Virus record (IMG/VR): IMGVR_UViG_2529292985_000017
Span: 1 to 4,757 of that record
DNA: 4,757 bases
Direction: 5' to 3' (one strand)
DNA from: a virus
Lineage: Duplodnaviria > Heunggongvirae > Uroviricota > Caudoviricetes
Part shown: in pieces, positions 1,087-2,154 of the stretch
Layout: each line of letters begins with the position of its first letter
How positions within the stretch are numbered: the first letter of the stretch is position 1
Notes under the pieces: model-generated
Seen by the model: only the letters and a program-made list of their open reading frames with translations
Database searches by the model: none
Told to the model about the DNA's origin: nothing
Made by a program: the position numbers and the translations under genes

Positions 1087-1122
1087 TGAAGTGGTCAACA
1101 AAAACTGGCCACCGAGTTAGAG
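1087..1122. repeat. IS911-like right terminal inverted repeat
   Basis: A 36-bp terminus beginning 5'-TGAAGTGG, matching my recollection of the IS911 right inverted repeat. The orfB stop codon (TGA, reverse complement of 1095-1097) lies inside it. Confidence 0.6.
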
Positions 1123-1810
1123 TTTTTCCAGTATCGATTTTCCGATTCGTTTGGGGGTAACCCACCGTTATATTCGTGCGGTCTTAGTGCGCTGTAATAT
1201 CCAACGATATAGTCCGTTATGGCGTGAGCTGCCTCGCTGAAGCTTACGTAACCCACCACCGGCATCCATTCGTTCTTCAGACTCCTGAAGAAGCGTTCCA
1301 TTGGGCTGTTATCCCAGCAGTTTCCGCGCCGGCTCATACTCTGTCTGATCTGGTATCGCCACAATAACTGCCGGAACTGCCTGCTCGTATAATGACTGCC
1401 CTGATCGCTGTGGAACATCACCCCACCGGGCTTACCACGGGTTTCCCATGCCATTTCCAGCGCTTTCATGGTGAGCCTGCTGTCCGGCGAGAACGACATG
1501 GCCCAGCCCACTGGTTTTCTTGCGAACAGGTCGAGAACAACGGCGAGGTACGCCCAGCGCTTACCCGTCCAGATACAGGTCACATCACCGCACCACACCT
1601 GATTTGGCTCGGTCACGGCGAACTGCCTTTCAAGGTAGTTAGGGATAGCAACATGTTCATGACCACCACGTTTATACCGGTGAGTCGGCTGCTGACAGCT
1701 GACCAGCCCCAGCTCTTTCATGAGCCTGCCAGCAAGCCAGCGTCCCATCTGGTAGCCTCTCCGGGTTGCCATTGTGGCGATGCTTCTTGCTCCGGCCGAA
1801 CCATGGTAGG
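1087..1810 (-). mobile_element. IS911-like (IS3 family) element remnant: right end plus most of orfB, left ~40% deleted
   Basis: The terminal sequence TGAAGTGGTCAACAAAAACTGGCCACCGAGTTAGAG (1087-1122) starts with TGA and contains the orfB stop codon, as in IS911. Transposase homology runs up to about 1805-1815, where phage-like sequence begins. No orfA, frameshift window or left inverted repeat is present. The inner boundary is approximate (plus or minus 20 bp). Confidence 0.8.
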
Positions 1811-1835
1811 CTGAAATGGTAACAGTGGGCTGCAA
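1095..1835 (-). pseudogene. IS3-family (IS911-like) transposase OrfB, DDE integrase domain; N-terminally truncated, no orfA partner
   Basis: The translation has the IS3-family motifs ([33 protein letters not shown]; D in NQVWCGDVT; D in [11 protein letters not shown]; E in [10 protein letters not shown]). It closely resembles IS911 OrfB as I recall it. The frame is open only to a stop at 1866-1868 and the track start at 1833-1835 is TTG. In intact IS3 elements OrfB is made as an OrfAB fusion by -1 frameshifting, and that upstream part is missing here. Confidence 0.85.
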
Positions 1836-2154
1836 ACTGCCGAACGGTCTGGTGCTGGAAGTGGGTCAGAAACGGGTTCAGGTGGCAGGCTGGCGGAATA
1901 ACGCGGTTAAAATTGTGGGGGGCTATGGTCTGACGCAGGTCGATAAGGTGTTTTTTGACGCCTGGCTGGCGGAGCACGGACAGCAACCTTATGTGAAAAA
2001 TGGCGTTATTTTTGCGCAGGATAAGGCGAACAGTGCAGTCTCGCAGGCTACGGAGCAGAAAGCCGTTAAATCCGGCCTTGAACCGCTGCCGCAGAAAAAT
2101 CCGGCTCCGGGCGTTAACCGCAATGATGAAGTGATGGGTAAACCTCAGGAGTAA
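1816..2154 (+). CDS. Phage structural-module protein of unknown function; probably the 3' part of a gene truncated at the IS911-remnant junction
   Basis: ORF of 112 codons on the same strand and immediately upstream (5-bp gap) of the DUF4054-like gene. Its ATG sits within about 10 bp of where IS911 homology ends, there is an in-frame TAG at 1807-1809 and no convincing ribosome-binding site. I recognise no family. Confidence 0.45.

Follow-up and report, generated by a model that had tools for sequence, protein, structure and literature searches.

An IS911 remnant fused to phage DNA

The stretch of DNA analysed here (hereafter the window, 4,757 bp) is identical to the whole of contig AERM01000079.1 of assembly GCA_000193895.2, which appears under the name Shigella dysenteriae CDC 74-1112 in a published table of strains (PMC6397287). 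At its centre, a truncated copy of the insertion sequence (IS) IS911, a member of the IS3 family, borders the remains of a cryptic prophage. By nucleotide matches, positions 1087-1806 correspond, on the minus strand, to the right-hand 720 bp of the 1,249-bp element (nt 530-1249, numbered from the left inverted repeat, IRL, to the right inverted repeat, IRR). This segment is 99.4-99.9% identical (1-3 mismatches) to full RefSeq copies annotated as “IS3-like element IS911 family transposase”. Over its inner end (1740-1806), all 67/67 positions agree with the IS911 copies that eight E. coli strains carry on plasmids of 245-294 kb. A first-pass annotation, made from the letters of the window alone, had described an IS911-like element reduced to its right ~720 bp, and this description holds.

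The remnant begins with the IRR tip (TGAAGTGGTCAAC...), which on direct reading of the plus strand appears as TGAAGTGG at 1087. The IRR itself (1087-1122), which we take to be 36 bp long from general knowledge of IS911, is intact and the same as in the full IS911 copies of two reference loci (L002 and L011). On the minus strand, 1095-1805 retains the last 236 codons of orfB plus its stop (1095-1097), and the frame (1095-1835) stays open for 10 more codons into phage DNA, up to a TTG at 1835. The frame matches the Pfam family rve over positions 2-102 of 102 (E 1e-31) and the NCBIfam IS3 transposase over positions 144-368 of 369, with positions 1-143 missing. The catalytic D84, D144 and E180 can all be identified, the last two separated by 35 residues; the DD(35)E signature, like the right inverted repeat, is intact, as had been noted at first. 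Two single bases differ among IS911 copies: an A at 1425 is private to the stub, with G in all other copies examined, while the C at 1576 is shared with other Shigella copies and gives DVTCIW, compared with DVTYIW in two E. coli copies, at a position that adjoins the first catalytic aspartate.

The first retained base is IS911 nt 530, which places the breakpoint at nt 529/530 of 1,249. In the protein, homology ends immediately N-terminal to HGSAGARSI, the motif near which its end had been placed at first. The left 529 bp of the element are lost, and with them the IRL, orfA, the A AAA AAG (A6G) frameshift site at nt 324 and ~60 codons of orfB; one terminal inverted repeat remains instead of the two (5'-TG...CA-3') of a functional element. 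At the truncated edge nothing resembles an inverted repeat end, the best match of 10-12 of 24 positions being within the window-wide background, and a promoter scan of 860-2300 revealed no sigma-70-like site able to drive the orfB remnant. Since orfA, the frameshift site and the IRL are gone, the OrfAB fusion cannot be made, as had been proposed. Judged by its sequence, a stub with one end and without OrfA is a fossil, predicted to be incapable of transposition and of OrfAB synthesis.

IS911 homology ends at 1806 and phage homology starts at 1809, and only TA (1807-1808) is unmatched. The boundary, formerly placed near 1805-1815, is thereby sharpened to 1806/1809, and the right limit of 1870 given for the element takes in the first 62 nt of phage DNA. 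Beyond the stub, positions 1809-4432 share 99.0% identity with a prophage found in eight complete E. coli genomes, several of which carry two or three copies of the module. The reference copy used here (L001) is an apparently intact prophage from an E. coli of the invasion-plasmid type; the window aligns from 1809 onward to its positions 15001-17605 with 99.0% identity, and L001 15001 is the G of the ATG of a 115-aa gene. In the phage collection no close relative of the segment was found, the best match, and nearest cultured phage by DNA, being a Klebsiella phage with ~74% identity over 13% of the segment.

The identical junction (...GGCCGAACCATGGTAGGCTGAAATGG...) is present in four closed chromosomes (L004, L005, L007 and L009) and in independent draft (short-read) and Logan read-set assemblies (L012, L014 and L015). 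Because the same joint recurs in closed genomes and in independent assemblies, the IS911/phage junction is real and no assembly artefact. It occurs in 0 of 5,426 complete E. coli genomes, and an exact-match scan of species-representative genomes, among which Shigella is probably not represented separately, did not return it.

On the phage side, the joint falls on the start of a small gene on the plus strand (1809-2154), which encodes 115 aa in intact relatives, belongs to a conserved family of unassigned function and has lost its ATG in the window. The open reading frame (ORF) at 1816-2154 restarts at the original Met4, so that only the first three codons are displaced. Its product matches PHROG 2085 (E 6e-44), residues 1-105 of the protein covering positions 4-107 of the 108 in the profile. 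It can be aligned over its full length with the 115-aa homologues from four intact relatives, which without exception begin with MAE(M/T)V. In these four, the major capsid gene is followed by the small gene, beginning ATGGC.GAA, and its slot between the major capsid and DUF4054 adaptor genes is kept in L001, L017, L018 and L019. A search of solved-structure sequences with the small-protein profile returned nothing below E 0.2. By source label, the 112-aa form is “Shigella” (66 contigs) and the 115-aa form E. coli or Salmonella. From homology and gene order, the ORF at 1816-2154 is a separate, near-complete phage gene minus its start codon. The initial suggestion that it might be the C-terminus of a capsid or head-completion protein is not borne out, as every intact relative has the PHROG 2085 gene as a gene of its own, downstream of the one for the major capsid protein.

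Missing lysis and head genes and the variable IRR flank

In L001, the genes upstream of the small gene are, proceeding outward, those for the major capsid protein (PHROG 264), a cement or minor head protein, a head maturation protease/scaffold and a head morphogenesis protein, followed further upstream by the portal, the large and small terminase, a hypothetical gene, an Rz-like lysis protein, the lysozyme RrrD and a class II holin. The order in L001 is also that of Klebsiella phage RCIP0114, and the succession of major capsid, small gene and DUF4054 gene is common to RCIP0114 and two more distant E. coli prophages. Among eight related loci, no terminase, portal or capsid family was found within 10 kb on either side. 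The deletion of head genes upstream, as first conjectured, is therefore supported, because intact relatives have these genes upstream and the eight loci are without them.

The closed relatives of the window show what adjoins the stub on both sides. In L004-L009, the IRR abuts ...TAATGTCGCCAT, which comprises the holin stop and the first 10 bases of rrrD (L001 5597-5606), and on the other side of the stub the prophage resumes at L001 15001. If this closed-genome arrangement is ancestral, the gap would span L001 5607-15000, i.e., 9,394 bp, in addition to the 529 bp of IS911. The comparison with an intact relative, which had been proposed as a check, thus revealed missing lysis and head genes, ~9.4 kb on this assumption; the opposite outcome named at the time, a relative whose gene order matches the window with nothing lost, was not what was found.

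The DNA that flanks the IRR differs by assembly: it is holin sequence in L003-L010, rdlD in the window and panB-side sequence in L012. In the window, the 186 bp between the IS66 end described below and the IRR (901-1086, plus strand) are a fragment of a long direct repeat (LDR) with the rdlD antitoxin RNA gene. The Rfam rdlD match at 890-955 is full-length and scores 73.2 bits against a gathering score of 50, and 100% identical copies of the fragment lie beside Ldr toxin genes in E. coli chromosomes; the fragment itself contains no Ldr toxin ORF. A weak hit to MicL reached 17.6 bits against a gathering score of 56 and was set aside as chance. The rdlD|IRR flank occurs only in the window, and 901-1086 is absent at the equivalent spot in L003-L012. 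This flank reflects either an IS911-mediated rearrangement or a chimeric draft join through the 720-bp repeat. More generally, the variability of the IRR flank fits homologous exchange among IS911 copies, which may have produced it, as may a mis-join in draft assemblies.

The segment between the tRNA genes and the holin in the closed relatives (L004 6060-7021) is 95.3% identical to L001 but reaches 99.55% with a lambda-like prophage from E. coli O121 strain 201805972 (L021). Its last 22 nt, up to the IS, and the start of the lysozyme gene are of the L001 type. This mosaic left flank looks like ordinary lambdoid mosaicism.

IS911 copies recur in this part of related prophages. Elements in the same orientation occupy three different sites within ~70 bp after a class II holin gene (L004 7022, L020 7113 and L021 7173), in three prophage contexts; one of them, the full copy in L020, has a clean 3-bp duplication (AAT), and one has none. 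The lysis cassettes of lambdoid prophages in Shigella and enteroinvasive E. coli (EIEC) may thus be a regional hot spot for IS911 insertion.

Origin of the joint

The joint, at 1803-1814 of the plus strand, reads ATGG-TAGG-CTGA at a place where both parents read ATGGCTGA. The ends to be compared are ...GAACCATGGCTGATGCC in IS911, ...GAGTTATGGCTGAAATGG in the phage and ...GAACCATGGTAGGCTGAAATGG in the window. Aligned on the octamer, IS911 reads ...GGCCGAACC ATGGCTGA TGCCATG..., the phage ...GTGTGAGTT ATGGCTGA AATGGTAAC... and the window ...GGCCGAACC ATGG TAGG CTGA AATGGTAAC.... Among 200,000 random pairs of IS911 and phage breakpoints, with offsets of up to 4 nt tolerated either way, 0.2% had a shared string of at least 8 nt near the joint (p ~0.002). 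The presence of ATGGCTGA at both parental breakpoints suggests a short-homology deletion joint. That slippage-type deletions do occur here follows from a nested 203-bp deletion in the stubs of L003 (7739/7740) and L010 (7741/7742), which corresponds to window 1602-1804. The right end of this deletion is 2 nt away from the junction of IS911 and phage, and an imperfect repeat of 13 nt (ACCTGATTTGGCT / ACCATGGTAGGCT) lies in register with it. Similar events are documented for ISApl1, whose IRR-only remnants arose at flanking repeats of 7 and 10 bp, an outcome ascribed to template switching or abortive transposition (PMC5821093).

What the sequences show directly is the anatomy with its breakpoints, the octamer that both parents share and the genes that intact relatives carry. 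From these we infer a single-step history with an ancestral insertion site and slippage as the mechanism: an inert IS911 stub would have been joined to a decaying prophage by one short-homology (illegitimate) deletion, a reading that we consider probable, if only just. The ancestral IS911 copy would have resided in the lysis region of the phage, with its IRR directly next to base 10 of the lysozyme gene and its IRL facing the late genes, so that the transposase genes were on the minus strand. A RecA-independent event, such as replication slippage or template switching, possibly in the course of an abortive copy-out step, would then have linked the IS911 interior with the start codon of the PHROG 2085 gene, at sites that both read ATGGCTGA. 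This deletion would have cost IS911 its left 529 bp and, provided that the arrangement in the closed genomes is ancestral, the phage 9,394 bp, from the lysozyme to the major capsid gene. The joint is imprecise: it contains 2-4 extra bases, which also destroy the ATG of the small gene. Thereafter the role of the stub would be passive, as 720 bp of homology to other IS911 copies, which may explain the differences in the IRR flank between assemblies.

Several observations weigh against this history. Four extra bases, which can be read as TAGG, GTAG or GGTA, break the octamer, and no tested model explains them; the window joint keeps no single clean copy of ATGGCTGA, and a clean joint would read GAACCATGGCTGAAATGG. 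The joint can in fact be read in three ways: as the octamer with a 4-nt insertion; as IS911 up to 1806, followed by TA and by phage sequence from 1809; or as IS911 up to 1806, followed by phage sequence that starts two bases earlier and has lost one T. No genome was found with a full IS911 at the lysozyme site and intact head genes, and a search for the holin|IRR junction returned two E. coli with IS911 at neighbouring sites only. The left flank is 95.3% identical to L001 and 99.55% to L021, so the two flanks may stem from different prophages, and the variation of the IRR flank (holin, rdlD, panB) makes both the ancestral site and the 9.4-kb figure conditional. Finally, the phage DNA contains, exactly 3 nt inward of its breakpoint, a sequence that resembles an IS911 end, and the single-step history has to treat this as coincidence.

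This last observation is the starting point of an alternative with two steps, in which IS911 transposase acted first and slippage followed; we regard it as unlikely, though worth serious attention. Background knowledge of the element has a cleaved IS911 end attacking the same strand three nucleotides outside the opposite end. In copy-out-paste-in elements the attack generally falls slightly outside that end, by the length of the target-site duplication (PMC5821093), which for IS911 is 3 bp (AAT in L020). The phage-borne sequence, TGAAATGGT at 1812-1820 of the plus strand, shares 8/9 bases with TGAAGTGGT and has the same orientation as the IRR at 1087, thus mimicking an IRR tip. In a first step, the IRL 3' end cleaved by OrfAB would have been transferred to the same strand, 3 nt outside the mimic, producing a 9.4-kb adjacent deletion with the junction IRL-GGC-TGAAATGGT (IRL tip + GGC + TGAAATGGTAACAG). 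In a second step, a 529-bp slippage between two copies of GGCTGA, one in the IS911 interior and one at the new junction, would have removed the IRL and orfA, which requires just a 6-bp repeat 529 bp apart. The start of phage homology at 1809, exactly 3 nt before TGAAATGGT, speaks for such a sequence of events, and offset and orientation both match the same-strand transfer of copy-out-paste-in elements (PMC5821093). Mimic-grade sites, counted for either inverted repeat tip, number 17 on both strands of the 32.6-kb prophage locus, ~12 of them on the strand of the mimic, so that the chance of the exact phase is ~1e-3 and that of lying within 12 nt either way ~1e-2. Polard et al. (1994, cited in PMC5821093) reportedly described one-ended IS911 insertion with surrogate ends.

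Against this stands the poor quality of the mimic beyond its tip: it matches the inverted repeat at 12/24 positions overall, and at 4/15 in the part that, as is generally known, binds OrfAB. The joint can be aligned in three ways of equal quality, and only one of them gives the 3-nt phase. The IS end that ought to adjoin the mimic is absent, the model leaves the TA at 1807-1808 without an explanation, given that a retained IRL tip would read CA, and two events are invoked where one suffices. Genome and metagenome scans, which covered hardly any Shigella, did not return an IRL-NNN-TGAAATGGT intermediate; these negatives carry no weight, because a control scan for the real junction in metagenomes was also empty. 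A bolder form of the idea, which we find rather doubtful, takes the joint as the fossil of a transposase that used the phage-borne tip mimic as a surrogate end, and holds that IS911 targets the late regions of lambdoid prophages non-randomly in Shigella and EIEC. If true, the 9.4-kb loss would be a transposase-catalysed same-strand transfer after which the IS decayed by slippage, and the mimic together with the clustering at holin sites would suggest that IS911 disarms the late regions of lambdoid prophages.

It is likewise rather unlikely that the joint arose by illegitimate recombination of unlinked DNA, i.e., between an IS911 copy elsewhere, in another prophage or replicon, and the block of neck genes, the head genes having been lost separately. 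Such an origin would account for the unequal identity of the flanks to L001 (95.3% on the left, 99.7% on the right) and for the 99.55% identity of the left flank to a different prophage type; the variable IRR flank and the two or three related module copies in strains with the intact prophage could be accommodated as well. However, every closed genome examined has early genes, tRNAs, holin, stub, neck and tail in an order collinear with one prophage, the lysozyme start and the 22 nt that end the holin region are of the L001 type, and lambdoid mosaicism explains the unequal identities without an extra event.

The first-pass annotation had favoured a classical IS911-mediated adjacent deletion in one step. 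In its favour, an IS is found beside a large block of lost genes, and the genome is of a kind in which losses driven by IS are well known (PMC7373316). Such a deletion would leave the IS whole and end at its terminus, however, whereas here the IRL and 529 bp are deleted and the retained edge has no IR-like end above the background of 10-12 of 24. Because the breakpoint lies inside IS911 and not at an IS end, the event is not a classical adjacent deletion, and we consider this origin very improbable. That the junction is an assembly artefact or a chimeric contig, as might be feared of a whole 4,757-bp draft contig that crosses a 720-bp repeat, has IS66 at both ends and shows an rdlD-IRR flank known from no other locus, can hardly be true of a joint that is identical in closed chromosomes and independent assemblies, and doubt is confined to the flank at 1086/1087.

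Stranded neck genes, flanking elements and known systems

Downstream of the small gene, four genes on the plus strand are intact by Pfam, PHROGs and synteny with L001: a DUF4054/E217 gp27-like gene (2160-2633), a Neck1/tail-completion gene (2627-3211), an E217 gp28-like collar gene (3208-3573) and a neck terminator gene (3558-4103). The first of them contains a perfect (GTATCG)n hexamer array at 2430-2461 that encodes Ser-Val repeats, with 5 copies in the window, L009, L012 and L014 and 2 in L001, L003, L004 and L006; it is a repeat of variable length that keeps the reading frame of a virion gene, although the prophage is dead. Next follow the first 116 codons of the tail-sheath gene (4084-4432, plus strand; Pfam DUF3383 positions 2-113 of 493), which is cut at 4433 by an IS66-family copy and whose remainder is intact beyond the IS in L003-L008. 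An 8-bp target duplication, GCTGATGC, surrounds this copy (L004 10342-10349 and 12789-12796; window 4425-4440). As the sheath gene resumes after the IS with an 8-bp duplication, this event was a simple insertion. Further downstream, a further IS1 interrupts the tube-gene region in the closed relatives.

Only the left end of the sheath-gene copy lies in the window (4433-4757, plus strand), with a GTAAGCG... tip and the tnpA start at ~4525. At the opposite edge of the window, 1-900 (plus strand) is the right end of an IS66-family element, which contains the 3' part of tnpC (36-863) and terminates with ...GCACGCTTAC at 900. This part matches Pfam DDE_Tnp_IS66 (E 3e-81) and IS66_C as well as positions 149-385 of 387 of NCBIfam transpos_IS66, and is 99.6-99.8% identical to IS66 copies in L003-L010. 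Both ends of the contig hence lie inside IS66-family copies, as expected of draft assemblies that break at repeats; the contig is nevertheless continuous across the 720-bp IS911 repeat.

A truncated IS911 bordering a prophage that has lost its core genes is already known and expected biology in public sequences, and what is mildly unusual is the end-tip mimic at the breakpoint together with the clustering of IS911 just after holin genes. The analysis provides a base-level boundary for an IS911 fossil and a cryptic prophage in Shigella dysenteriae, with little import beyond annotation, and corrects the proposed mechanism from an adjacent deletion to a short-homology joint inside the IS, at the strength given above. 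The loss of the lysis and head modules, with neck and tail genes left stranded, fits prophage inactivation and IS-associated decay in Shigella. In practical terms, the 720 bp of homology provided by the stub can mislead short-read assemblies and support rearrangements.

IS911 was first described in Shigella dysenteriae. It is one of five IS types that are expanded in all Shigella, where IS interrupt genes and promote deletions and rearrangements (PMC7373316). With the complete element, the stub shares 99.4-99.9% identity over 720 bp, above the 95% taken as the mark of IS911, the IRR and the OrfB core with its DD(35)E signature; unlike the complete element, it keeps nt 530-1249 only and is devoid of the IRL, orfA, the A6G site and the N-terminal part of OrfB. 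The stranded phage genes resemble the neck and tail module of Pseudomonas phage E217-type myoviruses: Pfam families that take their names from E217 gp27, gp28 and gp31, together with neck terminator family 9, match them in the same order, a likeness at the level of profiles only. A second context is provided by the sit pathogenicity island (PAI sit) of Shigella flexneri, EIEC and other E. coli: the intact phage relative lies directly beside sitDCB in L001, the one copy examined, whereas the window stops short of the sit genes. A review portrays this island as unstable and rich in rearrangements, deletions and IS (PMC7545054, citing Fisher et al. 2009). A mechanistic parallel is ISApl1 in Tn6330, a copy-out-paste-in element of the IS30 family that likewise leaves IRR-only remnants, with joints at 1-10 bp repeats (PMC5821093). 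The deletions of ISApl1 are, however, about the length of the IS and close by, whereas here one breakpoint lies ~9.4 kb off and the joint carries extra bases.

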